Below are positions 15,336 through 63,513 of a stretch of DNA of 64,000 nucleotides, one piece after another. Within the stretch, counting starts at the first letter, position 1. Each line of letters starts with the position of its first letter. The notes beneath the pieces are model-generated. The model saw nothing but the letters and a program-made list of their open reading frames with translations, did no database searches and was not told where the DNA came from. This DNA comes from Candidatus Omnitrophota bacterium (GTDB lineage: Bacteria > Omnitrophota > Omnitrophia > Omnitrophales > Aquincolibacteriaceae), in contig JAKLFP010000010.1 of assembly GCA_022711115.1 (NCBI GenBank), forward strand, positions 14,330-78,329, given 5' to 3'. The translations under genes and the position numbers were made by a program.

Positions 15336-15486
15336 TCTGAGCTTCAAAGCCATCGGAAAAAGTCGCAACTCCAATTCTATCTTTTGTTAAGAAAAGCCTC
15401 AGTACAGCCGAAAAATGAATACGCCTATCTATGGCAGATCTCTCGGTAGGTCTGTCCTAGTGTCCTGAACCATTGACGGCAAAGGG

Positions 15487-41997: not shown

Positions 41998-43581
41998 ATG
42001 ACTGACACCGGGGAAAAGGGAAAATCCGAGAACGAATTTGTTGTCAAGGCAAGCCGGATCTTGCTGGCCAAACGCTGGCAGGTGCTCCGTCTGATCACGC
42101 AGGTCCAGGACTATTCCCGCTATATGCCCAACGTGAAAGAGTGTAAGGTCTTGAGCCGCAATCGCAATCGCGTCGTGACTCTTTGGAAAGTCGAGATGGG
42201 GAGGATCCCGATCTCCTGGCAAGAAGAAGATACCTTGGACTTCCGGGATTTCCAAATTCACTTCAAAACCATCGATGGGGATCTGGAGAAATTCGAGGGC
42301 TATTGGAAACTCCAGGAGCATCCTTCGGGAGGTACCGAGGTTTTTGTGGAAGCGACCATCCGTCTGGGCATTCCCATCGTTGAAAATATTGTCGGGGGTA
42401 TGGTCGCGGAACGGGTCAAAAAGAATTTAGAAGCCATCCTCCGGGCTTTCGAAGAAGCCCTCACGGCCCGCCGTTATCAAAAAATCCGTTCCCGAGGCAG
42501 TCATGATATCAAAGGTTTTGGGGTGATCGGTCATCCTTACAATTTGAAGCATCTTGTCCAATACCTTAAATCCTTCAATCCGGCAATGCGGGTCCCGTCG
42601 CCGGAATTTCTTTCGAAAGTTTTTGAATTGATGCCGTCTTATGTGACGCATGAAATTAAAAAGTTCCAGGCGGCGAGCGGGAAAAATGTCCATGGCTCTT
42701 TCATCATGTGCAATATCATTCCCGATATGCTGGATAAGGATATCGAGCAAGTCGTCCGCAAAGTAGTGGAATCCTGCAAGGTGGCGGAAAAACTCGGCCT
42801 GGGCATCGTTGCGCTCGGAGGGTTTACTTCGATTGCGGGTGAAAAATACGGCGATCAGTTTCGACAACTTATCAATGTCCCGGTGACAACCGGGAACACC
42901 CTGACGGCTGCCATGGCGGTCGAAGGTGTCTTGAAAGCGGCGCGTTTGCGGGGTTTAGATCTTTCCCAAGCCAAGGTGACTGTGATCGGGGGCGTTGGCG
43001 ATATCGGAAGTGCCTGTGCTCGTTCTTTTGCGCGCAAAGTTAAAGAGATAACCATTACAAGCCGGAGTGCCGAACATCTTGAAAAAGCCCGCTTCATGCT
43101 GGACGGTTTTCCCGCTAAATTTTCCGGCAGTCACGACAATAATGCGGCCGTGCGGGATGCGGACATCGTCATTGCCGCCGCGAGCGCGTCGCAATCGATT
43201 GTGGAGATCTCCAGTTTTAAGTCAGGGGCCATTGTGTGCGATATCGGCTATCCAAAAAACATCGCTTACGCCGATACGGATCGAGAGGACATTCTTATTT
43301 TTGCGGGCGGGATTTGTTCCTTGCCGCAGGAATTGAATTCGGGTTTTGATATCGGTCTGCCTTCTTCCAAGGTACTCTACGGCTGTTTCTCGGAGGCCAT
43401 TGTCCTTTCCCTGGAAGAGCGTTACGAGAATTATTCGTGGGGAAAAGGCAATATCACCGAGGAAAAGATGGCGGAGATCCTTGCCATGGCCCGCAGGCAC
43501 GGTTTTGAGCTGGCGCCCTTTTTCTGGGGGCACCGGCAATTGAGCGACGAAGAGATTCAGGCCATTAAGGTAAAATCATGA
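41998..43581 (+). CDS. SRPBCC (polyketide-cyclase/START-like) domain fused to an acyl-ACP reductase (AAR)-like NAD(P)H-dependent domain
   Basis: N-terminal 140 aa has a Polyketide_cyc2-like pattern. C-terminal about 340 aa shares a run of motifs with cyanobacterial AAR as I recall it: GVIGH, ALGGFTSI, TTGNT, VIGGVGDIGSA, DIGYPKN, YGCFSEA and YSWGKGNITEEKMAEILAMARRHGF. No search was run. Confidence 0.65.
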   Translation: MTDTGEKGKSENEFVVKASRILLAKRWQVLRLITQVQDYSRYMPNVKECKVLSRNRNRVVTLWKVEMGRIPISWQEEDTLDFRDFQIHFKTIDGDLEKFEGYWKLQEHPSGGTEVFVEATIRLGIPIVENIVGGMVAERVKKNLEAILRAFEEALTARRYQKIRSRGSHDIKGFGVIGHPYNLKHLVQYLKSFNPAMRVPSPEFLSKVFELMPSYVTHEIKKFQAASGKNVHGSFIMCNIIPDMLDKDIEQVVRKVVESCKVAEKLGLGIVALGGFTSIAGEKYGDQFRQLINVPVTTGNTLTAAMAVEGVLKAARLRGLDLSQAKVTVIGGVGDIGSACARSFARKVKEITITSRSAEHLEKARFMLDGFPAKFSGSHDNNAAVRDADIVIAAASASQSIVEISSFKSGAIVCDIGYPKNIAYADTDREDILIFAGGICSLPQELNSGFDIGLPSSKVLYGCFSEAIVLSLEERYENYSWGKGNITEEKMAEILAMARRHGFELAPFFWGHRQLSDEEIQAIKVKS

Positions 43582-43691
43582 GACTGTTAGCCAATGGCTT
43601 ATCGCCTATAGCCCATAGCACGTAGCCGCCAATCGCCTCAATCTTTGACTAGAGTCTATAGGCTAGGAGCTAAGATCGAGAGTCTGATCTT

Positions 43692-46157
43692 ATGACAAAC
43701 ATCATGCATGTTTTTGAACTCAACTTCTATGCCGTGCCCCTTGTCGTGGTCGGGCTTCTGATGTTTCTGACCGGGCTTTACATTTTTCTCCACAACAAAC
43801 ACTCCCGCGCGAACTTCTCCTTTTTCCTGATCTGCCTTTGCGGTCTTTTTTGGTTTTTCGGAAATGCCGCGACCTATTCGGCGCGCACGCCGGAAGCCGC
43901 GCTCGCTTTTTACAGGGCGGTCACGTTTTTGGGCGTGGCCCTGATCGCGCCCTGTGTTTATTATTTTTCCGCAAGCTGGTTGAATCTTTTTGATAAGCAA
44001 AAGGCCGGCGTGCGGACCGCGCTTTTCTTGGGGGCTGCTTTTTATATTGTAGGGCTTTTTTCTCCAAGAAGTTTCCCCGGCGTCCGGCATTATTTTTGGG
44101 GCTACTATCCGGTCTATGGGCCGCTGAATTACTATTTTCTCGGCTATTTTTATCTGGTGCTGGCCAATGCGTTCTATAATTTTTTCAGGGCCTATTTCAA
44201 AGAACCGCGGGGTGTTCGCCGTACCCAGATCCGATTGATCACGCTCAGCTTTGTGGTGGCCTTTTTCAGCTCGCTTGATTATCTGCCGAAGCTGCTCTCT
44301 TATCCGGTTTATCCGCTGGGTTTTCTCCTCGTCTTTTTGTGGATCCTGATCGTGGCCTACGCCATCATCAAATACAGGGCCATGGATATCGAAACCGTGG
44401 TCCACAAGACCTTGATGTGGCTGGCCACCTCGGCGGTGGCGGTGGTGCCGTTCCTGGCAGTGATCTACGGGTTTGAAAAGATCCGGAATCCTTCCTCGAA
44501 CTTGCTTTCGACACTTTATTATTTTACGGTTTCGATCGCTTTTTATTTTTATTTCCGGGCCATCCAGCCGCGGCTGGACCATTGGTTCCAGCGCCGGCGC
44601 ACGAACCTGCTGGCGATTCTTGAGCAATTCTCCAAGGAGCTCGTGCATTTGAAGAACCTGCGCGACCTTCTGCAAAACTTCGCCCGCATGCTCCGGAACA
44701 AACTTTTTGTCCGCAGGCTTTCGGTCTACCTGTTGGATGAGAAAAAAGGGGAGTTTGTTCCCGCGATCGCCAAGGGGCTGCGCAGCTTAAAACCCTTTCC
44801 CAAGGGGCATCCCTTTTTTTCGTGGCTCGAGAAAACGGATGCCGTGGTGGTTGGGGAACTTGTGCTGGCGGATCCCTCCGTCGAAACGTTCAAAAAAGAA
44901 TTAGAAGATTATTTTCAGGCAACCCAATCCTTTTTAAGCGTGCCCTTTGTGCTCGGCGGGAAATTGATCGCCCTAGCGAACCTCGGCAAAAAAGCAAATC
45001 TGCGCCGGTATGGTTTTGAAGAAGTCCAATTTTTCGCCAAACTGAAAGCGCCGCTTACCATTGCCTTTTCGAATTCCATGCAGTTTGAGAATATTTCCGA
45101 ACTTTACAACCAGGTCCGCAAGATGAGCGAAGAACTGAAGCAATGGAACATCGAGCTGGAACAGCGCGTGGAAGATCGGACGCGCGAGTTGGTGAAAACC
45201 CAGGACCAGCTAGTGCAGGCCGAAAAACTCGCGACGCTCGGCACGCTTGCCGGCGGCGTGGCGCATGAGATCAACAATCCCTTGACGGCAGTTCTGACCA
45301 ACGCGCAGATCCTCAAAATGACGGCGGACGAAGATGTCCGGGAATCGCTGGACCTGATCGAGGAGGGCGCGAAGCGGTGCCAGCAGATCGTCCAAAAGCT
45401 CATGAAATACGCGCGTAAGACCGCGGAAGAGGCGCCGCACAAGGAAGTGGATCTGAATGAAGTGGTGCAAGGGACGTGCGCGCTTCTGGGGTTTCAATTT
45501 CAGCAAGAGAATATCGAGATTGAGACCAAGCTGGGCCAGATCCGCCGCGTGATGGGAATCGGCAATGAGCTGGAGCAGGTGCTTACGAACCTTCTTGTGA
45601 ACGCCCGGGATGCCATTAAGTCCAATCCTCAATCAAAAGATTTAAAGGTTAATGGGACTAGTCCTGGCAACCTTCAGTCAGAAGAAGATAGATGCCAGGG
45701 CAAATCCCATTCTCCATCAAAAGATTTAAAGGTTAATGGGACTAGTCCTGGCAACCTTCAGTCAGAAGAAGATAGATGCCAGGGCAAATCCCATTCTCCA
45801 TCAAAAGATTTAAAGGTTAATGGGACTAGCCCTGGCAACCTTCAGTCAGAAGAAGATAGATGCCAGGGCAAGTCTGCAAGAAGCCAAGGCCGGATTGTGG
45901 TCGAAACCCGCGGGAAGGGAGCCATGGTGGAACTTGTGGTCACGGACAACGGCATCGGTATTCCCAAAGGAAACCTCAAAAAGATCTTCGATCCCTTTTT
46001 TACGACCAAAGAGGTCGGTTCCGGTACTGGGTTGGGGCTTGCGGTCAGTTACGGCATCCTGAAGCGGCATAATGCTTCCGTGAGCGTTGATTCTTCGCCC
46101 GGCAAAGGTACTACCTTTGTGCTTTGCTTTCCCCGAAAGCAACAAGGTGAATCATGA
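43692..46157 (+). CDS. sensor histidine kinase (7TM N-terminal sensor, GAF-like, HisKA, HATPase_c) carrying an in-frame 3x28-aa repeat insertion
   Basis: 7 TM helices N-terminally; H-box [13 protein letters not shown]; N-box [10 protein letters not shown]; G-boxes DNGIGIP and GSGTGLGL. Three copies of [28 protein letters not shown] lie between the N box and G1 box. Confidence 0.85.
45633..45884 (+). repeat. 3 x 84-bp near-perfect in-frame tandem repeat inside the kinase ATP-binding domain
   Basis: Units start at about 45633, 45717 and 45801. A single T/C difference (actagtcct vs actagccct) separates copy 3 from copies 1-2. Confidence 0.9.
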
Positions 46158-46199
46158 AATGTCCTAGTGTTCAATTGGGATTTCATGTCCAATTCGCCA

Positions 46200-46255
46200 T
46201 TAAAAATTCAAAGGTTAATTGGACTAGCCCTGGTGACCTTCAGTTAGATGAAAAA
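46200..46255 (+). repeat. diverged partial copy of the 84-bp repeat unit in the intergenic region
   Basis: caaaggttaattggactagccctggtgaccttcagttagatg aligns to the intragenic unit aaaggttaatgggactagtcctggcaaccttcagtcagaag at about 80 percent identity. Confidence 0.6.
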
Positions 46256-47810: not shown

Positions 47811-49187
47811 ATGAATCCGTATAACTTCTCAGTCCTGTGTTTCGGTTTTTGCAGTTTGCTTCTCGGAATTTTCGTTTGGCTTAAGCGGCAAGATTATGTT
47901 GGGCGACTTTATTTTGCTTTATCCTTTTTTTATGCTGGTTGGGCAATTTTTATATCGATTAATCTTAATAATGACATTTCGCCGGACCTCGGTCTTCTTA
48001 TGGGGCGATTAGGGAATGGCTTTGCTATTTTTATTTCCATTATTTGGTATCATTTTGTTTTGGTTTATACAGGATTTATTGAAAAACATTACAAGTTGGT
48101 GAAGTTTTTTTACATCATCTCGATACTAACATTTTGTTTTGTGTTTTCACCTTGGTTTATTCCAAAGACAGCAACTATAGTTGGTTTTAAGCATTACTCG
48201 CAAGCTGGACCAATCCATTATTTTTTTTCATTCTTATTTTTCATTCTAGTCACACTAAGTTTTATTGAATTGCACCGGAAAATAAAGAACTCTTTCGGAT
48301 ATGAAAGAGCGCAATTCAAAGGACTTTTTTGGACAGCCCTTTTGGGGTATCTCGGAGGGAGTCCGGCTTTTCTTCCGATTTATGGGATTCCCATGCCCCA
48401 ATATTGTCTCTTTTTAATGCCCCTTTATCCATTCATGTTGGCTTACTTCATGACCAAACAAAAACTCTTCGATGTGGCGGAATTGGCCCAAGCGGCGCAT
48501 AGGGATAAACTTTCGGCAATTGGTTTATTGGCAGCCAGTATAAATCACGAGGTCAAAAATCCATTATTTGTCATTAAAGGCATGACAGAAACACAGTTGG
48601 AACGTTTGCATGACCCGACGCAGTCAACAGAAAAGTTAAGAGAAATGCTAGAAAAAACCCTTCAGCAGGCGGATCGGGCGCTTGGAATTATTCGAAGCTT
48701 TTCTGAGTATGCAAAAAGGCAAAGCTCGCGAACATTCGATAAACAAATGCTCGATATTCGAGAAGTTATTGACAATATTATTCCGTTTGTGCGCAGCGAG
48801 TTGGCTTTGGACTCTATTCACCTAGAGTTGAATATACCGGCAAAAACCATGATCTGTGCGGACCAGCAATCCATGGAAGAAATCTTTCTGAATTTAATCG
48901 TGAATGCCTGCCAGGCGATAAAAAGCACTAATAAAACGGGTGAGATTGAGATTTCATCAGAGAAAGAAGATCCGTGGATCAGGATTGCAGTGCGAGATAC
49001 CGGGCCGGGATTGTCACAGGATCAGCTTTCAAGGATCTTTGAGCCATTTTACACAACAAAAGTATCAGGGACAGGCCTTGGACTTTATGTGGTCAAGCAG
49101 CTTGTCGAGAAAAATCAAGGCAGGATTGAGGTAGTTTCAAAGATCGGCGTTGGGACCACCTTTACCCTTATCTTTTCGCAACACTAG
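47811..49187 (+). CDS. sensor histidine kinase (7TM N-terminal sensor, HisKA, HATPase_c), tandem paralog
   Basis: MNPYNFSVLCFGFCSLLLGIFVWLKRQ is almost identical to the N-terminus of the preceding gene. H-box LAASINHEVKNPL. Noticeably lower GC than the upstream paralog. Confidence 0.85.
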   Translation: MNPYNFSVLCFGFCSLLLGIFVWLKRQDYVGRLYFALSFFYAGWAIFISINLNNDISPDLGLLMGRLGNGFAIFISIIWYHFVLVYTGFIEKHYKLVKFFYIISILTFCFVFSPWFIPKTATIVGFKHYSQAGPIHYFFSFLFFILVTLSFIELHRKIKNSFGYERAQFKGLFWTALLGYLGGSPAFLPIYGIPMPQYCLFLMPLYPFMLAYFMTKQKLFDVAELAQAAHRDKLSAIGLLAASINHEVKNPLFVIKGMTETQLERLHDPTQSTEKLREMLEKTLQQADRALGIIRSFSEYAKRQSSRTFDKQMLDIREVIDNIIPFVRSELALDSIHLELNIPAKTMICADQQSMEEIFLNLIVNACQAIKSTNKTGEIEISSEKEDPWIRIAVRDTGPGLSQDQLSRIFEPFYTTKVSGTGLGLYVVKQLVEKNQGRIEVVSKIGVGTTFTLIFSQH

Positions 49188-49352
49188 TTAATTCAATGGG
49201 TTATAGGACTTTTCTTTAAGGGATGGCTCTATTTAGCCGATATAACACTAGTGAGTTTTGTTTAATTTGGTGTGCTGACGATACAATCAACAAGAGAAGT
49301 TATTTAACATTTCGTTTAAAAAACCTTTGATAAATTACAATTTAAAAACAAT

Positions 49353-50180
49353 ATGTTGTTCGAAAATATGAAAACAGCCATAGAGGATTTTTTTTATAAA
49401 AAAGTTATTCGCAATATATTAATGCTCAGCAATTTTGGGCGACGTAGCGTTTTAGGAGAAGCTGCTTCGGGTTATAATTTTGACTATATGTATGAAAATA
49501 AACCGCACGGTTTTTTAGGAATAGGATATTTAATTGATAAAATGTTGCTTAATTTACCAGCTGTTCAAGCAACCAGACTCCGGCGTGTAAATATTGTCAA
49601 AATTGTAAGCAACGAGATCGAAAACCATAGGTTACAAGGAAAAACAACGAAAATTTTAGATTTAGCATGTGGCGCAGGCCGATATCTGTCAGATATTGTA
49701 AAGATTTTTTCCAAGAATAAGATAGAGATTGTAGGAATTGATTACGATAATAAATCATTAAAATTAGCTAAAAATCTCAGTGAAAAAGAAGGTATCTCAA
49801 AGGAACAAATCAGATTTGTTAAAGGGAATGTCTTTAGGCTGAGTATTCTAAAAAAATTGGGAAAACGAGTTGATTGGCGACCTAACATTGTTATTGCATC
49901 AGGGCTGACCGTTTATATTGATGATGATGAAGTGATAAATATGCTAAAACAAATTTATGAAGGGTTAGCTCACGATGGATGCATATTAATCGATAGCCAG
50001 GAAAGCAATCCAAGTCGCAAGTTGATGGAAAAGGTTTTAAAGACCAAGCAAGGAGCTTGGATTCTTTACTATAGGTCTCCAGCACAATGGCGGCATTGGT
50101 TACATAAATGTGGGTTCAGAGATATCGTTATTAGTTGTGATCAATGGAAAATGTACAACCTATGTTCAGCGCGAAAATGA
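49353..50180 (+). CDS. class I SAM-dependent methyltransferase
   Basis: Motif I ILDLACGAGRYL plus downstream acidic and IASG motifs. Low-GC gene. Confidence 0.7.
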   Translation: MLFENMKTAIEDFFYKKVIRNILMLSNFGRRSVLGEAASGYNFDYMYENKPHGFLGIGYLIDKMLLNLPAVQATRLRRVNIVKIVSNEIENHRLQGKTTKILDLACGAGRYLSDIVKIFSKNKIEIVGIDYDNKSLKLAKNLSEKEGISKEQIRFVKGNVFRLSILKKLGKRVDWRPNIVIASGLTVYIDDDEVINMLKQIYEGLAHDGCILIDSQESNPSRKLMEKVLKTKQGAWILYYRSPAQWRHWLHKCGFRDIVISCDQWKMYNLCSARK

Positions 50181-50554
50181 TGGCAGTATCAAAACCAACA
50201 ATTTTATTAATAGATGATGATCAATTGGTGTTGCGCTCCTTGGCAAAAGCCTTGGAAAAGGCTGGTTATAATGTGTTAGCAGTAGATGGGTACGATACAG
50301 CGATGGCTGCCATTCATGATAAAAATTTTGACTTAGTTTTGTCGGATATTCGTATGCCAGGAAAGAACGGTGTTGATACTGCGAAAGAAATCCAAGATAG
50401 TTTAATTGCAAATGGTAAGAAAGATTTACCGATTATATTTATAACGGGCTATAGTGGCGATGAAGAAAAGTTGCAGACGCCTTTATTGGGAGAAACATTA
50501 TACAAACCTGTAGATATAAATCGTTTACTAACTATAATTCGGGATTATCTATGA
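50177..50554 (+). CDS. single-domain response regulator (CheY-like receiver)
   Basis: ILLIDDDQLVLRSL...LVLSDIRMPGKNG...K. Start moved to the ATG overlapping the methyltransferase stop (ATGA). Confidence 0.8.
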   Translation: MMAVSKPTILLIDDDQLVLRSLAKALEKAGYNVLAVDGYDTAMAAIHDKNFDLVLSDIRMPGKNGVDTAKEIQDSLIANGKKDLPIIFITGYSGDEEKLQTPLLGETLYKPVDINRLLTIIRDYL

Positions 50555-51798
50555 AAAATCGGGTTGCTGTTACAGGAATAGGCATTGTGAGTCCCATCGG
50601 AATTGGGATTGATAATTTTTGGAAGGCGACAATTTCTGGTGAATCTGGAGCAGGAGAAATTACATTATTTGACGCGTGTAATTATGCTACAAAAATTGCG
50701 GCAGAAGTGAAGAATTTTAATCCAGCGGACTTTATGCTTCCGGAAGTTTACAGAAAAACTGATAGGTTTGCTCAATTTGGAGTTGCTGCTGCAAAAATGG
50801 CTATTGAGGAATCAAGATTAGAAGGAGCTTATGATCTGCAACAGAATCGCATACCAGTTATTATTGGCTCAGGGTTAGGTGGAAGTTTATTTCATGAGGA
50901 ACAAATTTTTCAATTGATTGGGACTCAAGAGCCAAAAAAAGTGCTTTCGAGCTCTGTTCCCCGAATTACTCCAAATGCCGTATCAGCGTTTATTGCCATG
51001 CAATATAAATTTCGCGGAACTAATTTGACTATTTCAACGGCATGTTCTTCAGCAGGGAATGCGATTGCCTTGGCTGCCCAACAGATTGAAAATGGAAAAA
51101 CGGATATTGTGATTACAGGGGGAGTAGAATGTCCCATAACCCCCTTTACTTATGCAGCCTATCAATCTCTTCGGGTATTATCAAAGGGCTTACAAGGGGC
51201 CAAGAAGGCGTCTCGGCCGTTTGATAAAAAAAGAGATGGCTTTGTGTTAGGAGAAGGTGCTGGCATTTTAGTGTTGGAGAACTATGAAAAAGCGTGTTCA
51301 AGAAAAGCTATTATTCATGCCGAACTAAAAGGTTATGGAAGTAATTGTGGCGCTTTTCATATGGCTGCACCTGATCCTAGTGGAGCAGATGCAGCCGCAG
51401 TTATGCGTGAAGCTATAATGCATGCTGGGATTTCAACAGTAGAAATTGACTATATTAATGCACATGGGACAGCTACTCAAGCGAATGATGTATGTGAAGC
51501 AAAAGCTATTAATATGGTTTTTGAAGAAGGTGGGAAAAAACCTTTTGTTAGTAGCACAAAATCTCAAATAGGTCATACGATAGGAGGTGCAGGAGCAATA
51601 GGTGCTATTGCGGCTATTTTGGCTGTCAAAAATGATATTATTCCTCCTAATATTAATTGTGATGAGTTAGATGACCAATGCAATATTAATGTGGTTCAAG
51701 AAAAAGCGTTGCACGCTCGTACGATCAATGCCATTTCAAATTCTTTTGGTTTCGGATCTAATAATACGGCCTTAGTTTTTGGAAAAGCGGAATACTAA
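50551..51798 (+). CDS. beta-ketoacyl-ACP synthase II-like condensing enzyme (KAS, FabF/FabB type)
   Basis: Active-site TACSS Cys, plus His motifs NAHGTAT and GHTIGGAGA; 415 aa. Confidence 0.88.
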   Translation: MKNRVAVTGIGIVSPIGIGIDNFWKATISGESGAGEITLFDACNYATKIAAEVKNFNPADFMLPEVYRKTDRFAQFGVAAAKMAIEESRLEGAYDLQQNRIPVIIGSGLGGSLFHEEQIFQLIGTQEPKKVLSSSVPRITPNAVSAFIAMQYKFRGTNLTISTACSSAGNAIALAAQQIENGKTDIVITGGVECPITPFTYAAYQSLRVLSKGLQGAKKASRPFDKKRDGFVLGEGAGILVLENYEKACSRKAIIHAELKGYGSNCGAFHMAAPDPSGADAAAVMREAIMHAGISTVEIDYINAHGTATQANDVCEAKAINMVFEEGGKKPFVSSTKSQIGHTIGGAGAIGAIAAILAVKNDIIPPNINCDELDDQCNINVVQEKALHARTINAISNSFGFGSNNTALVFGKAEY

Positions 51799-51826
51799 AA
51801 TCATGAATGTGAAGGGAGTTACGATT

Positions 51827-52108
51827 ATGACGGATTCACTGCAAAGAAAAGAAATTTTACAAAGACTGGAAAAAATTTTTAGTAACCTTTTGCGATCAAT
51901 GCAGGAAAAAGATCTTAAAAAGCGTCCTATTATTTCTTTTGATACTGACATAGCAAAGGATCTTTCAATTGATTCTGTAGAAACACTCGATTTACTCAAT
52001 AGCATAGAAGAGGAATTTGAAGTGAGTCCTGATTTACATGTAGCTAACACAAAGCGGAAAGTCGGCCAGATTGTTGATTACATAATAGAATTGCAAGAGC
52101 AAAAATAA
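51827..52108 (+). CDS. acyl carrier protein (dedicated, ACP-like)
   Basis: DLSIDSVETLDLLNSIEEEF phosphopantetheine-attachment Ser in a DSxE context. Start chosen at the ATG preceded by a GAAGGGAG RBS. Confidence 0.7.
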   Translation: MTDSLQRKEILQRLEKIFSNLLRSMQEKDLKKRPIISFDTDIAKDLSIDSVETLDLLNSIEEEFEVSPDLHVANTKRKVGQIVDYIIELQEQK

Positions 52109-52131
52109 ATTTTGTTAAATGAGAAAATAAA

Positions 52132-52911
52132 ATGGCTATTAATAAAAAAGTTGAAGAAGAGAATAAGATTTGGATATTAGAAATCGATAATCCTCCGATG
52201 AATAATTTAAATCCTGTTGTGGTCGACGGACTTAGTCGAGAAATTAAAAGTTTTAATGAAGATGCTGTCGCTCGTTCAATGGTCATAACAGGGGCTGGTG
52301 AAAGAGTGTTTATCGGTGGGGTAGCGATTGAGGAGATTAGGAAAATAAAGTCTTCAGATCAAGGGATGATTCTAGCGAAAAAAGGACAAGAATTATGTAA
52401 TCAGATAGAAAATTCCGAAAAACCTATTATTGCAGCTGTAAATGCCCTGTGCATTGGTGGAGGGACAGAAATCCTTTTGGCTTGCCATCTCCGTGTGGCT
52501 TCCGAGAAAACAAAATTTGGTCAACCAGAAATTGCGATGGGTTTTATGCCTGGTTTTGGTGGGACTCAACGATTGCCACGTGTAGTTGGAATTTCACAAG
52601 CGCGTCGCCTTATTTTATTGGGGGAAACTATCGACGCTCAAGAAGCATATCGAATAGGGTTAATTGATTTTCTTGTTTCTAAAGAAAAACTGCTATCAAC
52701 AGCTATGAATCTGGCCAAAAAAATAGCTGAAAAAGGACCAATAAGCATTTTAATGGCACAGCGCTCTATTCAAAAAGGCTATCAAATGAATTTAAAAGAC
52801 GGTCTTGATTTGGAACTGAAGTTATTCGGAGAGCTTTGCAAAACTGAAGACATGAAAGAAGGATTACAGTCTTTTATTGATCATCGAAAAGCTATTTTTA
52901 AGGGACGATAA
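52132..52911 (+). CDS. enoyl-CoA hydratase/isomerase (crotonase) family protein
   Basis: Crotonase oxyanion-hole region ALCIGGGTEILLACHLRVA and FGQPEIAMGFMPGFGGTQRL; 259 aa. Confidence 0.85.
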   Translation: MAINKKVEEENKIWILEIDNPPMNNLNPVVVDGLSREIKSFNEDAVARSMVITGAGERVFIGGVAIEEIRKIKSSDQGMILAKKGQELCNQIENSEKPIIAAVNALCIGGGTEILLACHLRVASEKTKFGQPEIAMGFMPGFGGTQRLPRVVGISQARRLILLGETIDAQEAYRIGLIDFLVSKEKLLSTAMNLAKKIAEKGPISILMAQRSIQKGYQMNLKDGLDLELKLFGELCKTEDMKEGLQSFIDHRKAIFKGR

Positions 52912-52917
52912 AATCTG

Positions 52918-53541
52918 ATGATAAGTGGAGTAATCTGCTTTGGTGATAGTATTTTAGCTGGGACAGGAGCATCATTTCGCGATAAAGGATGTGCCAAGCT
53001 ATTGAAGGCAAGATTAAAAATACCAGTCTCTTTGAAAGGAATTAATCGTAATACCAGCCAAGATGGTTTAATTCGCTTACAGCAAGATGTGCTAGACCAG
53101 AAGAATTTATCTCATGTGATAATCCTTTTTGGGAATAATGATTGTCGTTTTGTAGATTCTAACCGCTTTTCTGTTTCCCAAGATCATTTTATTGAAAATC
53201 TCAAAGAAATGGCCGCTAGCATTAAACGCAACCATCAAATCCCCATGTTTTGTAATTTACAGCCAATAGATTTTCCAATGCTATTTCAATTCATGCCGGA
53301 AGTTCAAAAAATTTATAGTGAAAACAAAATAAACCCCGAAGAACTTCAAGGGACATATAGTGATTTGATTGAAAATTTTGCTAAGAAGAGCGCCGAAATC
53401 TTAATCGATATTAGAACTCCATTAAAATGTAAAAAAAATGAAATTTTGGCAAAAGATGGACTGCATCCCAATGATTATGGCCATGAGATAATTGCGCAAA
53501 AGATTTTCGCTGAATTAAAAAAATACGATTCTACAATTTAA
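52918..53541 (+). CDS. SGNH/GDSL hydrolase (TesA-like thioesterase/lipase family)
   Basis: N-terminal block I ICFGDSILAG (catalytic Ser) and C-terminal DGLHPN block (catalytic Asp/His); 207 aa. Confidence 0.75.
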   Translation: MISGVICFGDSILAGTGASFRDKGCAKLLKARLKIPVSLKGINRNTSQDGLIRLQQDVLDQKNLSHVIILFGNNDCRFVDSNRFSVSQDHFIENLKEMAASIKRNHQIPMFCNLQPIDFPMLFQFMPEVQKIYSENKINPEELQGTYSDLIENFAKKSAEILIDIRTPLKCKKNEILAKDGLHPNDYGHEIIAQKIFAELKKYDSTI

Positions 53542-53577: not shown

Positions 53578-55875
53578 ATGGCATTCTATATCCTGATAAC
53601 GGGACTTATTACCGCATCATATGCAGGCCTGGGCCTTTTCGTTTTTTTAAATGATCGAAGGAAATTTCTTTTTCGAATTTTTTTGTTATTTTGTTTGTCC
53701 GTCGCCTTATGGGCGTTTGGATATTTTATAACTCTCTTATCTCATATTACTTATCCAGTCGCAATTTTATCTAGCCGTATTTCGCATGCCATTGGGGCTT
53801 TTATTCCGATTACCTTTTTGCACTTTGTCTTGTCGTTTCTTCGCATTGATACTAATCATCGCCGACTTTTGCAAAACGGTTATATTGTATCCACAATTAT
53901 GTTCGGCATTGCACTAACACCATATGTGGTAAGCGATGTGGTGCAAAAGATGGATATTCGATTTTATCCCGAAAAAGGGTTATTTTATCCAATATATGCG
54001 GCGCTTTATTTGGTTTATGCGCTTGGATTTGCTCAGTTTTATCTATTTAAATCTTTTTTGAGCGCTACCGGAATTAATAAAAAGCGACTTCTTTTCTTTA
54101 TAGTTTCAACATTTGTAGGTTTTATCGGTGGTGTTTCGCTTTTCTTGCTAATATTTAATATTCCTGTTCCTCCTTATGCTAGTTCACTTATTGTAATTTG
54201 GCCATTTGCAATGGCGTATACGATTATTAAATATCGCGAATTTAATATAGAAGTTATTATTAAAAGGACATTGGTTTTTACTGGAGTTTTTGGTTCAATC
54301 ATTGGCATTGTTGCTATTGTGACAACACTTGCTCAAAATTATTTGGGGCAATATCTTGGTATAGGGCTGTTGGCGCGACAGATTTTTAGTGTTTTGATTG
54401 CCATCTTGCTTTTTGATCCGATTCGAAAACTGCTGATTAATCTCACGGACAAATACCTTTTTCAGAAAAAGTACGACTACCACAAGCTGCTCAAGGACGC
54501 GTCGCGGGGGATGTCGAACATCGAGAGCCTGGAGCGGTTGCTGGGTCTGGTCGTGCACTTCGTGACCATGAAGATGCGCGTGAAGAACGCGGCGGTGTTG
54601 ATGCGGGAAGGGGGCATGGATCAGTTTCATCTGGTGTATCAGCGCGGGTACGATAAAAAACACGTTGCCCTGACGCTCTACAGTAATGACCCGCTGATCC
54701 ATTACCTGGAGAATCATCAGGAGGCCGTGGACATCGAAAGGGTGAAAGAACAAGTCGAATCCGCCTCCCACCAGCGCGACAGAAGCGAGGTCGCGTATGA
54801 TTATGAAGCGATTCGCGAACGGATGATCCAGTTGCAGGCCAGCTGTTGCGTGCCGAGTTTTTTGGGCAAGGAGCTCAAGAATGTTCTTCTGCTCGGCGAA
54901 AAAAAATCCGGCGAATATTATTCCAACGAAGACCTGAATCTGCTTTACACGCTGGCGCAGGAATCCGCGATTGCGATCGAGAATGCCTGGCTTTATGATG
55001 AGGCCAAGAAAAAATCCCGAGAACTCGAACACATCAATGAGCAATTGGAACATTCCAAAACGCTTTTGATGAAAGCCTTGCAAGAAGCCGAAGGCGCGAA
55101 CAAACAGCTTCAGGACACACAGGCACAGTTGATCCACGAGCAGAAAATGGCGACCCTGGGCCGTCTGGCCGCGTCCGTGGGGCATGAAGTCAACAACCCA
55201 CTGACCATTCTGTCCATGAACGTGTCGCGCGTGATCCTCAAGTACCGGAAAAACCCGGATATGAAAGTGATCGAGATCCTGGATGTTTTTGACAAGATGG
55301 AAAAAAATATCGAGCGCATCAAAGCCGTGGTGAACACACTGACCGGGCTCCTCAAGAAATCCGAAAAAGGAAAATTCGAACCGCTGTCGCTCAAGCTGAT
55401 CCTGGAAGAAACCCTGCCGCTCGTGCAGTTCCAGACCTATCTGGACAATCTTTCGGGCACGGAAGTGGATTTCAACGTGCCGGGCAATATCCCGCTTATT
55501 CGCGGCGATCTGGAGCGTTTGCAGGAGGTATTTCTCAATCTTTTCATCAATGCCTATCATGCCATGGCCGGGAAGCGGCACCGCAAGATCGCGGTGGCTG
55601 CCGAGATCGACCCGCAGGACTCAAAGATGGTGGCGATCCATTTCAGGGACAACGGTTCGGGCATGACCGAAGATGTCATCAAAAAGGTCTTCAATTACGG
55701 TTTCACCACCAAACCGCTAGGCAAAGGATCAGGGCTCGGCCTGTATATGTGCAAGTACATCATTGAGCTTCACGGCGGGACGATTGTGGTGCAAAGCAAA
55801 GTCGGGGAGGGGACGACGTTCACGCTGACGCTGCCGATCTACGAGGAGTCTCCGGCGCTGAAGGCGCGAAGCTAG
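53578..55875 (+). CDS. sensor histidine kinase (7TM N-terminal sensor, GAF-like, HisKA, HATPase_c); compositionally chimeric
   Basis: ATG at 53578 with an AGGAAAG RBS; the ORF-track start at 53545 is a TTG. H-box LAASVGHEVNNPL; G-boxes DNGSGM and GSGLGLYM. GC jumps from about 35 to about 60 percent near nt 54450. Confidence 0.85.
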   Translation: MAFYILITGLITASYAGLGLFVFLNDRRKFLFRIFLLFCLSVALWAFGYFITLLSHITYPVAILSSRISHAIGAFIPITFLHFVLSFLRIDTNHRRLLQNGYIVSTIMFGIALTPYVVSDVVQKMDIRFYPEKGLFYPIYAALYLVYALGFAQFYLFKSFLSATGINKKRLLFFIVSTFVGFIGGVSLFLLIFNIPVPPYASSLIVIWPFAMAYTIIKYREFNIEVIIKRTLVFTGVFGSIIGIVAIVTTLAQNYLGQYLGIGLLARQIFSVLIAILLFDPIRKLLINLTDKYLFQKKYDYHKLLKDASRGMSNIESLERLLGLVVHFVTMKMRVKNAAVLMREGGMDQFHLVYQRGYDKKHVALTLYSNDPLIHYLENHQEAVDIERVKEQVESASHQRDRSEVAYDYEAIRERMIQLQASCCVPSFLGKELKNVLLLGEKKSGEYYSNEDLNLLYTLAQESAIAIENAWLYDEAKKKSRELEHINEQLEHSKTLLMKALQEAEGANKQLQDTQAQLIHEQKMATLGRLAASVGHEVNNPLTILSMNVSRVILKYRKNPDMKVIEILDVFDKMEKNIERIKAVVNTLTGLLKKSEKGKFEPLSLKLILEETLPLVQFQTYLDNLSGTEVDFNVPGNIPLIRGDLERLQEVFLNLFINAYHAMAGKRHRKIAVAAEIDPQDSKMVAIHFRDNGSGMTEDVIKKVFNYGFTTKPLGKGSGLGLYMCKYIIELHGGTIVVQSKVGEGTTFTLTLPIYEESPALKARS

Positions 55876-56055
55876 ACTTCAGACCACGGACGACAGACTA
55901 TAGACTGCAGACCCTAGATGGCAGATTTCAGAGCTGGAGGAAGTTGTCATTGCGAACGTTCCCCGCAATTCGTTGGACGAATCCGTCCGAGAAATTTGGC
56001 AGAAAGTGAAGCAATCTCGCAATATTCAGGCTTAAAGAATTAATAAAAAATAAAA

Positions 56056-56096
56056 AAGAGATTGCCATGCCATCAAAACGAGGCTCGCAATGACAG
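56056..56096 (+). repeat. hairpin repeat family copy A (GAGATTGCCAYGYC...CTCGCAATGACA)
   Basis: aagagattgccatgccatcaaaacgaggctcgcaatgacag, 9 nt upstream of the GIY-YIG start codon. Confidence 0.6.
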
Positions 56097-56104
56097 AGTA
56101 ACCT

Positions 56105-56386
56105 ATGTCAAAAAAAGGTTATGTTTATATTTTATCGAACTCTTCCAATACAGTTTTATATACCGGGGTAACATCAGATCTTTGGGCGCGAGTGGGTGAG
56201 CATAAACAAAAGTTAGTGAAGGGATTCACAAAACGGTATAATGTTACTAAGCTTGTCTGGTTTGAAGAATTTGGATCGATTCATGAGGCAATTGCGTCAG
56301 AAAAGAAAATAAAAGCAGGATCCAGAGCTAAAAAAATAAAATTGATTAAAACTCTGAATCCTGAATTTAGAGATTTAGCATTATAG
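56105..56386 (+). CDS. small GIY-YIG nuclease-domain protein (YhbQ/UPF0213-like)
   Basis: KGYVYIL...LYTGVT...FTKRYNVTKLVWFEEF is a GIY-YIG core; 93 aa. Confidence 0.8.
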   Translation: MSKKGYVYILSNSSNTVLYTGVTSDLWARVGEHKQKLVKGFTKRYNVTKLVWFEEFGSIHEAIASEKKIKAGSRAKKIKLIKTLNPEFRDLAL

Positions 56387-56390
56387 TTTT

Positions 56391-56433
56391 AAGAGATTGC
56401 CACGCCCCTCAAAACGGGGCTCGCAATGACAAA
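56391..56433 (+). repeat. hairpin repeat family copy B
   Basis: aagagattgccacgcccctcaaaacggggctcgcaatgacaaa, 5 nt after the GIY-YIG stop. Confidence 0.6.
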
Positions 56434-56479
56434 CAGGAGAAAAGTCGCAGTTTGTGGTTAGCGGTCTGGAGTTTTTAGT

Positions 56480-56836
56480 ATGAAAAAAATACTGATTGTG
56501 GATGATGAAGTCGGGATCGTGCAGGAGATCAAGGAATTCCTGACCGAAGAAGGCTATGACGCTTATACGGCGGATACAGCCAAGGAAGGGATCCGTCTGA
56601 TCCAGGAATTGAAACCGGATGTGGTTTTTATTGATGTGAAACTGCCGGATGCGTCCGGGATCGACGTGCTGAAGGCGTGTAAGGAAGAGTCTCCCAGAAC
56701 CAAGACCGTCATGGTGACGGGCTATGTGGATCAGAATTTGATGGATGAGGCCGAAGCGGTCGGGCGTGACGCGTTTCTTCAAAAACCTTTTGACCTTGTC
56801 CGCATCACCGAAGAAATCGAACGGTTGCTTGGCTAG
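56480..56836 (+). CDS. single-domain response regulator (CheY-like receiver)
   Basis: ILIVDDEVGIV...VVFIDVKLPDASG...K; 118 aa. Confidence 0.85.
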   Translation: MKKILIVDDEVGIVQEIKEFLTEEGYDAYTADTAKEGIRLIQELKPDVVFIDVKLPDASGIDVLKACKEESPRTKTVMVTGYVDQNLMDEAEAVGRDAFLQKPFDLVRITEEIERLLG

Positions 56837-56929
56837 ACTATAGGCCATCACTATAGACTGGAGACGGCAGACTGAGGCATGTCATCGCGAGCGAAGCGTG
56901 GCGATCTCCTGGCTATCGAAGTCGGTAAA

Positions 56930-57208
56930 ATGAAAAAAGGTTATGTCTATATTTTAGCAACTCCCTCCAACAAAGTTCTTTATACGGGCGTTACCGCAGA
57001 TCTTTGGGATAGGGTGACTCAACATAAAGACAAAACGGTCGAAGGGTTCACAAAACGTTACAACGTTACCAAATTGGTTTATTTTGAAGAATTCACATCC
57101 ATCATGGATGCGATCTCAGCGGAGAAAAAAATAAAAGCTGGATCCAGAGCTAAAAAAATAGAGTTGATTAAAACATTGAATCCTGCATTTAAGGATCTAG
57201 CGCAATAA
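56930..57208 (+). CDS. small GIY-YIG nuclease-domain protein (YhbQ/UPF0213-like), paralog
   Basis: MKKGYVYILATPSNKVLYTGVTADLW...FTKRYNVTKLVYFEEF. Start moved to the internal ATG to match its paralog. Confidence 0.8.
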   Translation: MKKGYVYILATPSNKVLYTGVTADLWDRVTQHKDKTVEGFTKRYNVTKLVYFEEFTSIMDAISAEKKIKAGSRAKKIELIKTLNPAFKDLAQ

Positions 57209-57210
57209 TT

Positions 57211-57253
57211 AGGAGATTGCCACGCCCTAAAAGACAGGGCTCGCAATGACAAA
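57211..57253 (+). repeat. hairpin repeat family copy C
   Basis: aggagattgccacgccctaaaagacagggctcgcaatgacaaa, immediately after the GIY-YIG stop. Confidence 0.6.
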
Positions 57254-57285
57254 AAGGGAAAAGCTTCAGACGGAGGTTTTCAATT

Positions 57286-57822
57286 ATGAATTTTATTCAA
57301 ACAGAAATTCCGGGTGTGATCCTGATCGAGCCCAAGGTCTTTCATGACCCGCGCGGCTTTTTTTATGAAAGTTACCGCAGAAAACTTTTCGCGGCCAACG
57401 GGATCAAGGACCATTTTGTCCAGGACAACATCAGCTCGTCGGCCAAAGGAGTTTTGCGCGGCCTTCATTATCAGATTGCGCCACGGGCTCAGGCGAAGCT
57501 GATGCGTGTGATCAAAGGGTCTGTTTACGATGTTGTTGTGGATATCCGGCCACGGTCCAAAACTTTCGGCAAATTTGTCGCGGTCACGCTTTCTGCGGAA
57601 AACAGAAAGTTACTTTATATCCCCAAAGGTTTCGCGCACGGTTTTTGCGTTCTGGAAGACGGCACGGAATTCATGTACAAGGTTTCGGACTATTATTCAC
57701 CCGAACACGAGCGAGGCATCCTCTGGAGTGATCCGGGTCTGGCGATCCCTTGGCCGAAGTTGGATCGCGCATTCATCCTTTCCGAGAAAGACAAAAAATA
57801 CCCTACCCTCAGCAGCTTATAG
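57286..57822 (+). CDS. rfbC: dTDP-4-dehydrorhamnose 3,5-epimerase
   Basis: Cupin RmlC motifs (FHDPRGFFYESY, RGLHYQ, DGTEFMYKVSDYY); 178 aa. Confidence 0.92.
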   Translation: MNFIQTEIPGVILIEPKVFHDPRGFFYESYRRKLFAANGIKDHFVQDNISSSAKGVLRGLHYQIAPRAQAKLMRVIKGSVYDVVVDIRPRSKTFGKFVAVTLSAENRKLLYIPKGFAHGFCVLEDGTEFMYKVSDYYSPEHERGILWSDPGLAIPWPKLDRAFILSEKDKKYPTLSSL

Positions 57823-57898
57823 CCGATAGCTCATGGACAATAGCTAATAGCTCATAGCTTTTAGCTATAAGCTAGAGTCTAGGGTCTCAAGTCTAGAG

Positions 57899-58330
57899 CT
57901 ATAGGTTTTCTTTCGGCGTGATATTCCAGTGATACAGGATTATGGAGGAACCTTGGGGGCCGATGTCGAGGGTGATTTGGGTTTCCGGTTTATCCTGAAA
58001 ACACATTTTGGAAGATTTTTGGCAGTAATAAATATCCGCCTTGAGCGCGAGGATGGCATGTCCCGGTCTTGTCTTGAGCGTGATCTTAAAAGTATTGCCG
58101 GAGAGTTTTGGCAATGGCTTCGGAATTTCAACAATGTCGGGATTGGCGGTCTGGCAGGCGATTGAATGAGGGGCCTGCGGGATGAGCTCGTAGCCCTTGG
58201 GAAGATAAAGCTTCACCGTTAAGGTTGTGTCTCCTTGCTGTACCTGAAAAGCCGTTGCCTCTGTCTGTGTGATTGACAGAAGCAACAGGAACAAACTTGA
58301 AAGGATGATTTTCCCGAAATATTTTTTCAT
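57899..58330 (-). CDS. secreted hypothetical protein
   Basis: Signal peptide MKKYFGKIILSSLFLLLLSITQTEA; 143 aa. Confidence 0.55.
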   Translation of the reverse strand: MKKYFGKIILSSLFLLLLSITQTEATAFQVQQGDTTLTVKLYLPKGYELIPQAPHSIACQTANPDIVEIPKPLPKLSGNTFKITLKTRPGHAILALKADIYYCQKSSKMCFQDKPETQITLDIGPQGSSIILYHWNITPKENL

Positions 58331-58480
58331 TTTAAGGAACCTTTAAAGTATTATCAATGGAATGAGAAGCTTTCTCAAGGAGAAAAACAACAGGCGACAG
58401 ACTGGCGACTCAAAGTCTGCCATCGCGAGCCGAAGGCGAAGCGATCTCTTATCAATGATTAAAATAATAAGGAATTAATA

Positions 58481-58533
58481 AAAGGAGATTGCCACGTCGC
58501 TCCTTTGGAGCTTCTCGCAATGACAAAATGACC
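58481..58533 (+). repeat. hairpin repeat family copy D (longer inner stem GGAGC/GCTCC)
   Basis: aaaggagattgccacgtcgctcctttggagcttctcgcaatgacaaaatgacc, upstream of the DUF167 gene. Confidence 0.55.
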
Positions 58534-58571
58534 GATTCCGTCTTCGCGAGCCAAATGCGGCAAAAGACGCC

Positions 58572-58802
58572 ATGAAGCTGACGATCAAAGTTAAAACGAA
58601 CGCTAAAGAGAACAGAGTAGAGAATACTGCGGACGGGGGATGGCGCGTTCTGGTGAAGGCCCCGCCGCAAGAAGGGCGCGCGAATGAAGCGGTCATCGAG
58701 GCGCTCGCGGGCCATTTCCGCGTTCCTAAAAGCCGGATTGCGATCATCGGGGGTTTCAAAAGCAAAACTAAAGTTGTTCGAGTCGGAGCGTGCGAGTGCT
58801 GA
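58572..58802 (+). CDS. DUF167 (YggU-like) family protein
   Basis: IKVKTNAKENRVE...VKAPPQEGRANEA...L...IIGG..S..K is a typical DUF167 pattern; 76 aa. Confidence 0.75.
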   Translation: MKLTIKVKTNAKENRVENTADGGWRVLVKAPPQEGRANEAVIEALAGHFRVPKSRIAIIGGFKSKTKVVRVGACEC

Positions 58803-58921
58803 TTTTTAGACCACAGACGGCAGACCACAGACAAGAGGCCCAACATCTCAAAAGAGCTTTCAGACTGCAGTCATCAGTCTGTAGTCTGATGGCAATAGTA
58901 TTTATGGTAAAATAGATTCAT

Positions 58922-63265: not shown

Positions 63266-63333
63266 TGGGATGTCTTTATTTTTTAAAGGGTTTCCTGTAG
63301 AATGTGCCACCTTGTTGCAGTTATTATCAGGAT

Positions 63334-63408
63334 GCTGGTGTAGCTCAGGGGTAGAGCAGCTGTTTTGTCCGCCAGAGGCGGATGCGTCCTTTGGCGCATA
63401 AACAGCGG
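63334..63408 (+). pseudogene. tRNA-Thr 5'-half fragment (acceptor 5' strand through anticodon) with 31-nt hairpin insertion; lacks T-arm and 3' acceptor strand
   Basis: GCTGGTGTAGCTCAGGGGTAGAGCAGCTGTTTTGT matches the intact tRNA-Thr 37 nt downstream except in the D-loop. It is followed by CCGCCAGAGGCGGATGCGTCCTTTGGCGCAT, then AAACAGCGG, then unrelated sequence. Confidence 0.6.
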
Positions 63409-63440: not shown

Positions 63441-63513
63441 GCTGGTGTAGCTCAGTTGGTAGAGCAGCTGTTTTGTAAACAGCGGGTCGGGGGTTCAAAT
63501 CCCTCCACCAGCT
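63441..63513 (+). tRNA. tRNA-Thr (anticodon UGU)
   Basis: Cloverleaf folded by hand: acceptor GCTGGTG/CACCAGC, D-arm GCTC-AGTTGGTA-GAGC, anticodon stem GCTGT/ACAGC with loop TTTGTAA, T-arm GGGGG-TTCAAAT-CCCTC. Confidence 0.85.

Follow-up and report, generated by a model that had tools for sequence, protein, structure and literature searches.

Why should intergenic DNA, directly behind the stop codon of one gene after another, turn into runs of TAG- and CTAG-containing words? This question is raised by a 64-kb stretch (46% G+C; in the following "the window") of a contig from a Candidatus Omnitrophota bacterium, in which a first-pass annotation had pointed out seven such patches. Five of the seven are tandem arrays of imperfect 7-nt units (heptads), far from what chance would give. 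The arrays start at the stop codon, and most of them pair with an inverted array further downstream to form a long imperfect stem-loop, which reaches up to the next ribosome-binding site or start codon.

A seven-base period behind stop codons

Scored against 5000 shuffles, for which the level was 0.25, the identity of bases seven positions apart (lag-7 identity) amounts to 0.49-0.65 in the five periodic patches (arrays A to E, Table 1; z 4-8), each of which contains 5-13 units and is located between open reading frames (ORFs). When the window was scanned in 42-nt segments, lag-7 matches peaked at 33/42 and 79 segments scored at least 26, a score that no segment reached at lags 2, 4, 5, 8, 9, 10, 11 or 13; multiples of 3 aside, no lag but 7 gave a signal. 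Independently, TRF reported a period of 7 at 55874, 57814, 57872 and 58808. The overall unit form in the window is YAG[A/C][C/T]NN, with the families YAGACNN and TAGCYNN (TAGCTNA, TAGCCNN), and many of the units are CAG or GAG, not TAG.

In three of the arrays the TAG stop of the gene itself is the first unit (TAGACTT.., TAGACTA.. and TAGCCGA..), namely that of a seven-transmembrane histidine kinase in array A (the fourth kinase, 53578-55875), of a receiver gene in array B (56480-56836) and of rmlC in array C (57820-57822). Array D starts at the TGA stop of a DUF167 gene (58572-58802), with the TGA in register, and array E lies in the gap that separates a cyclase/dehydrogenase gene (41998-43581) from the first kinase (43692). 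The two remaining patches lack the period: that at 15424-15467 has a lag-7 identity of 0.16 and begins 89 nt past the leuD stop (15335), and that at 46158-46180, with an identity of 0.25, belongs to or adjoins a partial copy of an 84-nt repeat in the spacer before the second kinase. The proposals that the patches are non-random, rich in short palindromes and tied to a repeat phenomenon were borne out, the last in the form of the 7-nt tandem period; their description as one class of sequences directly following stop codons holds for the five periodic patches and fails for the leuD patch and, as to class, for that before the second kinase.

The array region is 100% identical across four independent assemblies, so that the arrays are no assembly artefact and not hypervariable on short time scales either; no polymorphism in unit number between strains was found among these four assemblies, and a metagenome scan gave no near-identical strain. 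The rmlC protein of the window is also present on identical metagenome contigs. A scan of the whole window with Rfam 15 at gathering score returned two tRNAs only and no family match at the arrays, and a promoter/terminator consensus scan of the window gave nothing informative on them.

Direct arrays and their inverted partners

The split hairpin of array A is the clearest example. Its first 35 nt pair with the degenerate inverted units in front of the receiver gene, and the duplex of this 3' arm with 55870-55940 has an energy of -41.2 kcal/mol (z -4.5; reached by 0/300 shuffles). The receiver's Shine-Dalgarno sequence GGAG (56466-56469) lies within the 3' arm and pairs with CUUC 3-7 nt past the kinase UAG. 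Array D forms a duplex of -27.4 kcal/mol (z -3.6, 0/300 shuffles) with the partner hairpin that follows it, which is located upstream of the promoter-like TGGTAAAAT of an MMPL gene.

Array C takes up the whole of a convergent spacer, bounded by the stop codons of rmlC and of a minus-strand gene (57899-58330), and is of mixed composition, its left part consisting of self-complementary TAGCTNA units and its right part of YAGACNN on the minus strand. The minus-strand gene ends with ...WNITPKENL-TAG followed by CTCTAGACTTGAGACCCTAGACTCTAGC, that is, by a YAGAC array in the gene's own sense orientation, and the RNA fold of the whole array amounts to -33.5 kcal/mol (z -3.0). For array B only a weak partner was found past the cassette which follows it (z -1.9); orthologous YAGAC arrays stand after the receiver stop in two related contigs (L010 and L025). 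Array E folds no better than shuffles (z 0.13) and has no convincing partner.

None of the heptad hairpins is followed by a U tract; a Shine-Dalgarno sequence with ATG, or promoter-like sequence, stands there instead. Intrinsic terminators were rejected for this reason, a terminator scan having matched only 58870-58893, and weakly; canonical U-tract terminators are found elsewhere in the window (25382.., 41870.., 63220..).

Table 1. Heptad arrays, their partners and the inserted cassettes of the window (z of lag-7 identity)
Feature	Position	Strand	Units or gene	Lag-7 identity	z	Remarks
Array A	55873-55935	+	nine heptads: TAGACTT CAGACCA CGGACGA CAGACTA TAGACTG CAGACCC TAGATGG CAGATTT CAGAGCT	0.62	6.7	5' arm of split hairpin
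Array A, 3' arm	56443-56479	+	degenerate inverted units: gcaGTTT gtgGTTA gcgGTCT ggaGTTT	0.53	3.0	37 nt, ending at receiver ATG (56480)
Array B	56834-56878	+	TAGACTA TAGGCCA TCACTA TAGACTG GAGACGG CAGACTG AGGC	0.53	4.1	followed by GIY-YIG cassette 2
Array C	57820-57901	unstranded	~12-13 heptads, starting TAGCCGA TAGCTCA TGGACAA TAGCTAA TAGCTCA TAGCTTT TAGCTAT ...	0.65	8.1	
Array D	58800-58840	+	TGATTTT TAGACCA CAGACGG CAGACCA CAGACAA GAGGCCC	0.56	4.2	
Array D, partner hairpin CAGACTGCAGTCATCAGTCTGTAGTCTGATGG	58856-58893	+	inverted GTCTGNN units			local fold
Array E	43579-43691	+	TAGCCNN units, then units containing GGCTA/AGCTA (partly inverted) and GAGTCTR	0.49	5.9	
GIY-YIG cassette 1	55937-56431	+	gene 56105-56386			Pfam GIY-YIG, E 9e-16
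GIY-YIG cassette 2	56880-57250	+	gene ~56930-57208			Pfam GIY-YIG, E 1.6e-13
Possible degenerate YAGAC/GTCT mini-hairpin ggcgaCAGACTggcgactcaaAGTCTGcc	58385-58412	+				75% match to array A; weak, read by eye; adjoins gene-less cassette remnant (58413-58530)

Kept position and changing unit in relatives

The gene order kinase-receiver-rmlC-orf143-DUF167-MMPL is kept in ~15 metagenome-assembled genomes (MAGs) of Omnitrophota, whose proteins are ~70-85% identical to those of the window; the 23 close relatives found for the MMPL gene all come from Omnitrophota MAGs. The related contigs compared with the window carry L numbers in the following. Together, window and relatives (417 kb) contain 30 noncoding lag-7 arrays, and 0-8 arrays at each of the control lags 4, 5, 8, 10, 11 and 13; a further 11 lag-7 arrays appeared to be "coding", several of them representing over-extended ORF starts (for example, L010 9938 and L025 1790).

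Nearly all orthologous spacers hold a direct array and, behind it, the inverted complement of that array. At least 10 unit families occur in them, most of which lack TAG (CAGACNN/GTCTG, GGGACTN, GGGGAAC/GTTCCCC, GCCACGN/CGTGG, GTACGGN, CAACGNN, TAGCTNA, GGATGAN, AAGAGRC, CACAAGG and the 8-nt AGTGTCAR). The 5' arm usually begins no more than ~5 nt from the stop codon, which it often takes in, and the 3' arm usually ends 0-17 nt before the next start. Tails of the orf143 protein past its conserved C-terminal WEITPK (KI*, QTAD*, QTRD*, TGNG*) are variable and encoded by array units. The hairpins fold better than shuffles, with a mean z of ~-4 for 22 of them in orthologous spacers and, for example, z -5.2 in L010, -3.8 in L009 and -3.2 in L013. 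Conservation, proposed as a check on the patches, applies to hairpin placement, which is kept in orthologous spacers; the unit sequence is replaced and some species have no array.

The same direct-plus-inverted heptad hairpins can also be found in a second clade, represented by metagenome contigs (soil, rhizosphere, freshwater) with a G+C content of ~56%, in which rmlC is 54-57% identical and the units are others again (GAGGTTC/GAACYTC, CTGAGTT/GAACTCA). There, 407 kb contain 32 lag-7 arrays versus 0-4 for control lags. Some of the hairpins of this clade (contigs L046, L055, L058, L059, L061, L070, L085, L088, L090, L096 and L105) end right at start codons, and an array AGCCTTC AGCGTTC AGCCGTC AGCGATC is common to several of the contigs.

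As a separate observation on the first clade, the 8-nt family AGTGTCAR has the inverted partner CTGATACN and frequently occurs together with a core resembling TCATCGCTCACTTCGTTCGCTA (L016 8229-8287, 8915-8995 and 9522-9555; L009 12365-12523; L027 7949-7985).

Insertions in the hairpin loops

Between the arms of array A lies a cassette of 495 nt with the inverted ends GTCATTGCGA...TCGCAATGAC, flanked by repeats D3, D5 and D6 and absent from most relatives; judged by these features it is an insertion in the hairpin loop and no part of the heptad element. A second cassette, 73% identical to the first and with the ends GTCATCGCGAG...CTCGCAATGAC, is an insertion adjoining array B. Both cassettes have inverted ends of the type GTCATYGCGAG...CTCGCAATGAC and a conserved 38-nt hairpin (AGATTGCCACGCC...GGCTCGCAATGACA), and their GIY-YIG genes are small (93 and ~93-109 aa); a third is represented by a gene-less remnant at 58413-58530, upstream of DUF167. 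The GIY-YIG cassettes look like mobile mini-elements put into or beside heptad arrays.

Across relatives, the loop of the kinase-receiver hairpin is a recurrent insertion site. It holds GIY-YIG genes in the window and in L010, where a helix-turn-helix and nucleotidyltransferase gene is found as well, and genes of 23S rRNA intervening sequence (IVS) proteins (PF05635, bAvd-like) in L009 (7564-7935; E 8e-36) and L032 (3104-3469; E 2e-38), with a degraded PF05635 copy in the kinase-receiver spacer of L018 (599-853). PF05635 genes placed between heptad arms correspond in layout, a stem plus an ORF, to rRNA intervening sequences. It should also be noted that an element of ~65 nt (AGACTGCYACCAAACCYCAATGGTTTGG...CCTGTCCGA..CGAGAC) is common to L009 (7466-7530) and L027 (9509-9575), in both cases within CAGAC arrays of different spacers; it could be a small RNA or one more mobile element of small size.

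Proposed stem-loops between cistrons, or harmless repeats

We consider the patches to be slippage-born heptad arrays which act as intercistronic RNA stem-loops similar to the short tandemly repeated repetitive (STRR) elements of cyanobacteria, a joint reading to which we assign a probability of roughly 55%. The arrays would arise and turn over via replication slippage in 7-nt steps together with homogenisation of both arms, so that the period would stay constant while the unit differs between arrays and species. As the genes are co-directional and no U-tract terminators lie between them, the arrays probably form part of polycistronic transcripts. Within these, the stem-loops would protect or define mRNA segments and represent candidate sites for RNase III or barriers to 3'-exonucleases. 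Starting at the stop codon, an imperfect stem of 20-28 bp would reach as far as the ribosome-binding site and pair the downstream Shine-Dalgarno sequence with sequence just 3' of the upstream stop; the terminating ribosome would then open the next start, resulting in translational coupling. The loops also receive small selfish genes (GIY-YIG, 23S-rRNA-IVS protein). Positions -16 to -5 are at least half paired in 38 of 54 spacers, and for 26 of those 38 no more than 25 nt separate the partner from the upstream stop, both counts standing without a null model. In two three-sequence alignments of orthologous hairpins, one-sided changes that keep the pair stand against C-A-type breaks at ~9:3.

Several observations weigh against the stem-loop reading. 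Minimal orthologous spacers without any array exist (24 nt in L023, 36 nt in L021 and 45 nt in L015), so that the element is dispensable, and the period is not strictly 7, some arrays having the 8-nt unit mentioned above. Taken by themselves, array B, array E and the distal part of array A reach no better fold than shuffled sequence. Although the sense strand is the more stable one in 16 of 22 hairpins, the energy difference is not significant (Wilcoxon p 0.10 on the energies and 0.26 on the z-scores), and G-U versus A-C in the stems (120:95) does not differ significantly either; with both the strand and the wobble test non-significant, a purely DNA-level palindrome is possible. The two alignments, of three sequences each, contain no double compensatory change. 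As to arm polarity, there is no purine bias and a weak G excess in the 3' arms.

Since the RNA-level tests lean towards the proposed role without being significant, a strong rival is that the arrays represent neutral or selfish DNA, either slippage-prone heptanucleotide microsatellites or palindromes resembling repetitive extragenic palindromic (REP) sequences or miniature inverted-repeat transposable elements (MITEs), which build up wherever spacer DNA puts up with them and which their hairpin form merely keeps harmless in operons; we regard this as possible rather than probable. Besides the missing G-U excess just described, it is favoured by orthologous spacers that have an array in some species and none in others, by the complete exchange of unit families between species whose flanking proteins are ~78% identical, by the close pair L013/L027, in which one spacer is 94% identical and the next one carries unrelated arrays, by one and the same GCCACG hairpin that is found on one side of DUF167 in L009 and on the other in L013/L027, and by arrays that run past the end of a gene and provide its stop codon, with varying tails past WEITPK; an excess of heptamers is, moreover, a general mutational bias in prokaryotes. 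What neutrality does not readily account for is that, despite this turnover, nearly every species has kept a hairpin of some kind between DUF167 and MMPL and between orf143 and DUF167, and that the hairpins span exactly the distance from stop codon to start region. The identity of the arrays in four assemblies speaks against short-term hypermutability, the full-length elements are, among the ~460 kb of related loci searched, not near-identical dispersed copies as in REPs, and none of the called genes in the annotated 20-kb neighbourhood encodes a REP-associated tyrosine transposase (RAYT; IS200/IS605-like Y1) or is of IS200 type.

Going beyond the stem-loop reading, one could think of a dedicated, lineage-wide RNA/DNA device, an mRNA analogue of rRNA intervening sequences with stems that are cut, that serve as landing pads and whose 7-nt register is read; we hold this to be doubtful. 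If it were true, the periodic stems would be cut, for example by RNase III or a factor recognising the heptad register, which would split operon transcripts, and mini-genes (GIY-YIG nucleases, 23S-IVS/Avd-like proteins) would use the stems as specific landing pads. The register would in that case have a function of its own and not be just a by-product of slippage in passive microsatellites.

That the arrays are binding sites for a protein which reads a 7-nt register is improbable. Candidates of this kind are known: HutP binds UAG triplets 4 nt apart, (UAG-N4)n, in RNA, repressors of the omega/ribbon-helix-helix type polymerise on 7-bp heptads in DNA, and cold-shock or S1 domains cover 6-7 nt. 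The strict 7-nt YAG spacing in arrays A-D fits the (UAG-N4)n of HutP sites, the YAGAC arrays are always sense-oriented after stops, that of the minus-strand gene included, and single-strand-binding candidates have been proposed for the TAACTGA heptamers (PMC4679880). The HutP spacing (UAG plus 4 nt) is indeed present in the arrays, yet many units read CAG, GAG or CGG, and units differ between arrays and species with more than 10 families, most of them without UAG, and with some arrays of 8-nt units. In addition, the arrays stand 3' of genes and not in leaders or promoters, many of them are predicted to be double-stranded in RNA, and no HutP-like or ribbon-helix-helix gene was found among the annotated 20 kb. 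HutP-type antiterminator sites were rejected on the basis of the 3' position and the lack of a HutP family among the neighbourhood genes, and omega/ribbon-helix-helix operators because units differ between arrays and arrays follow stop codons.

TAG and CTAG as words

The local enrichment that had first drawn attention to the patches is confirmed: per kb, the listed patches contain 56 TAG and 17 CTAG, the remaining intergenic DNA 10 and 2.5, and coding DNA 5 and 0.8, so that both words are 6-7-fold above other intergenic DNA. CTATAG occurs six times in the patches, not at all in other intergenic DNA and six times in coding DNA. The patches had been thought to stand out all the more as CTAG was taken for a specially avoided word. 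Across the window, 63 CTAG were observed, an observed-to-expected ratio (O/E) of 0.26 by the zero-order model; given the trinucleotide content, the Markov O/E is 1.1, that is, as expected. With the avoidance gone once trinucleotides are considered, the suggested link to restriction-modification found no support.

The words do not define the element either, for orthologous spacers carry GGGGAAC, GCCACGN, GTACGGN, CAACGNN, GGGACTN and GGATGAN units without TAG. A TAG at each seventh nucleotide does provide stops in all three frames, as had been claimed, a property missing from most unit families, and recoding of stop codons is not indicated, the usage in the window being normal for all three (TGA 21, TAA 18, TAG 13). 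In the window, patches and GIY-YIG cassettes alternate, and the patches and the hairpin family that flanks these cassettes had been suspected to be parts of one composite element; this idea was abandoned, as most relatives have heptad hairpins without a cassette and cassette 1 of the window interrupts a hairpin by lying in its loop. Since TAG-containing units are a minority among relatives, the richness in TAG and CTAG is an incidental property of two unit families. That the patches might be specific to these words, be it as clusters of restriction-modification sites, as all-frame stop insulators or as half of a composite with the hairpins flanking GIY-YIG, is a very improbable explanation, which the comparison with relatives has largely refuted. 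General caution is advisable in annotation: such patches owe their wealth of TAG and CTAG to the composition of the arrays and signal neither restriction-modification nor recoding.

Other features of the window

The MMPL/RND-type gene is preceded, in the window (58894-58921) and in nearly all relatives (L006-L032), by an extended -10-like TG-N-TA(G/A)AAT box, which ends ~5-10 nt before the ATG without an obvious Shine-Dalgarno sequence; this placement suggests a leaderless or very-short-leader mRNA. Of the 84-nt unit (28 aa) mentioned above, three in-frame copies are found in the first histidine kinase (45621-45871, between HisKA and HATPase_c), and the partial fourth copy is located at 46200-46247, in the spacer directly before the ATG of the second kinase. 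The stretch 47811-53541, with its kinase, methyltransferase, receiver, ketoacyl synthase, acyl carrier protein, enoyl-CoA hydratase and GDSL lipase genes, has a poor codon-usage score in a model trained on long ORFs of the window and relatives and may have been acquired horizontally. Upstream of tRNA-Thr (63441-63513), the region 63270-63400 repeats the 5' half of this tRNA (GCTGGTGTAGCTCAG..GTAGAGCAGCTGTTTTGT) and continues with an unrelated hairpin; ARAGORN made no call there, and the region resembles a tRNA copy that is incomplete or has been disrupted.

Comparison with known systems

The imperfect palindromes of enterobacteria and pseudomonads known as REP sequences or bacterial interspersed mosaic elements (BIMEs; also REPINs) lie between cistrons or 3' of genes near stops, are transcribed, can stabilise the upstream mRNA and are targets of mobile elements. 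The heptad palindromes of Omnitrophota are likewise intercistronic, near stop codons and used as insertion sites, whereas their arms are internally 7-nt periodic. A classification as REP/BIME was rejected, as eight representatives of the unit families, compared by blastn with ~460 kb from related loci, gave mostly orthologous copies only. The intervening sequences of 23S rRNA, the stems of which are cut by RNase III, share with the heptad elements a long stem and a loop able to carry a PF05635 (23S_rRNA_IVP) gene, as in L009 and L032; the heptad elements, in contrast, sit in an mRNA operon and their stems are built of heptads.

Closest are the heptanucleotide repeats (STRR), which have been known since 1990; to our knowledge, neither the cause of the 7-nt preference nor any function of these repeats has been established. 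In cyanobacteria, STRR of 7 bp form hairpins between hupS and hupL, for which a raised transcript stability or translational coupling was proposed (PMC2670836). With these (hupS-hupL; Anabaena, Nostoc, Lyngbya) the Omnitrophota arrays have in common the 7-nt unit, the imperfect arrays, several units per genome, the position in operon spacers and the hairpins. They differ in the phylum, in the units (CCCCAGT, TTGGTCA and CAACAGT in STRR versus YAGACNN, TAGCTNA, GGGGAAC and GCCACGN here), in beginning at the stop codon itself, in loops which repeatedly host GIY-YIG or 23S-IVS-protein genes and in orthologous spacers that are comparable across ~15 species. Thus, STRR in the strict sense do not apply, the arrays matching neither the cyanobacterial units nor the host.

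As far as the work of Mrazek (2007) is rendered in PMC4679880 and PMC4692102, heptamers are the most abundant long simple sequence repeats (SSRs) in prokaryotes, and polymerase slippage was proposed for them. GGGAATC arrays of Xanthomonas and GGGGAYT arrays of Nostoc include some inverted pairs and vary among related species at the same gene pairs (PMC4692102), and TAACTGA arrays adjoin start codons in Beggiatoaceae (PMC4679880). All these heptamers, including cyanobacterial TAACTGA, resemble the Omnitrophota arrays in being intergenic, variable in length and sequence between related species at a given gene pair, and occasionally arranged as inverted pairs. They have, however, one dominant unit per genome as opposed to the many unit families of Omnitrophota; one of them forms G-quadruplexes and TAACTGA stands just upstream of start codons, whereas the Omnitrophota architecture is mainly a stem-loop of direct and inverted array, from the stop to the start region.

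Heptad arrays of this kind were not described in Omnitrophota in the literature that we searched. With 7-nt units in at least three head-to-tail copies, an intergenic position, several units and hairpins in operons, they show what marks the heptanucleotide class and are the Omnitrophota counterpart of the heptanucleotide STRR and long-SSR arrays of cyanobacteria, Xanthomonas and Beggiatoaceae. The kind is therefore already known, and the Omnitrophota case, with units of its own, is new. With six orthologous spacers in ~15 species, in which units turn over and hairpin placement is kept, the operon provides a compact comparative system that bears on the old question of the 7-nt preference and the role of heptanucleotide repeats.

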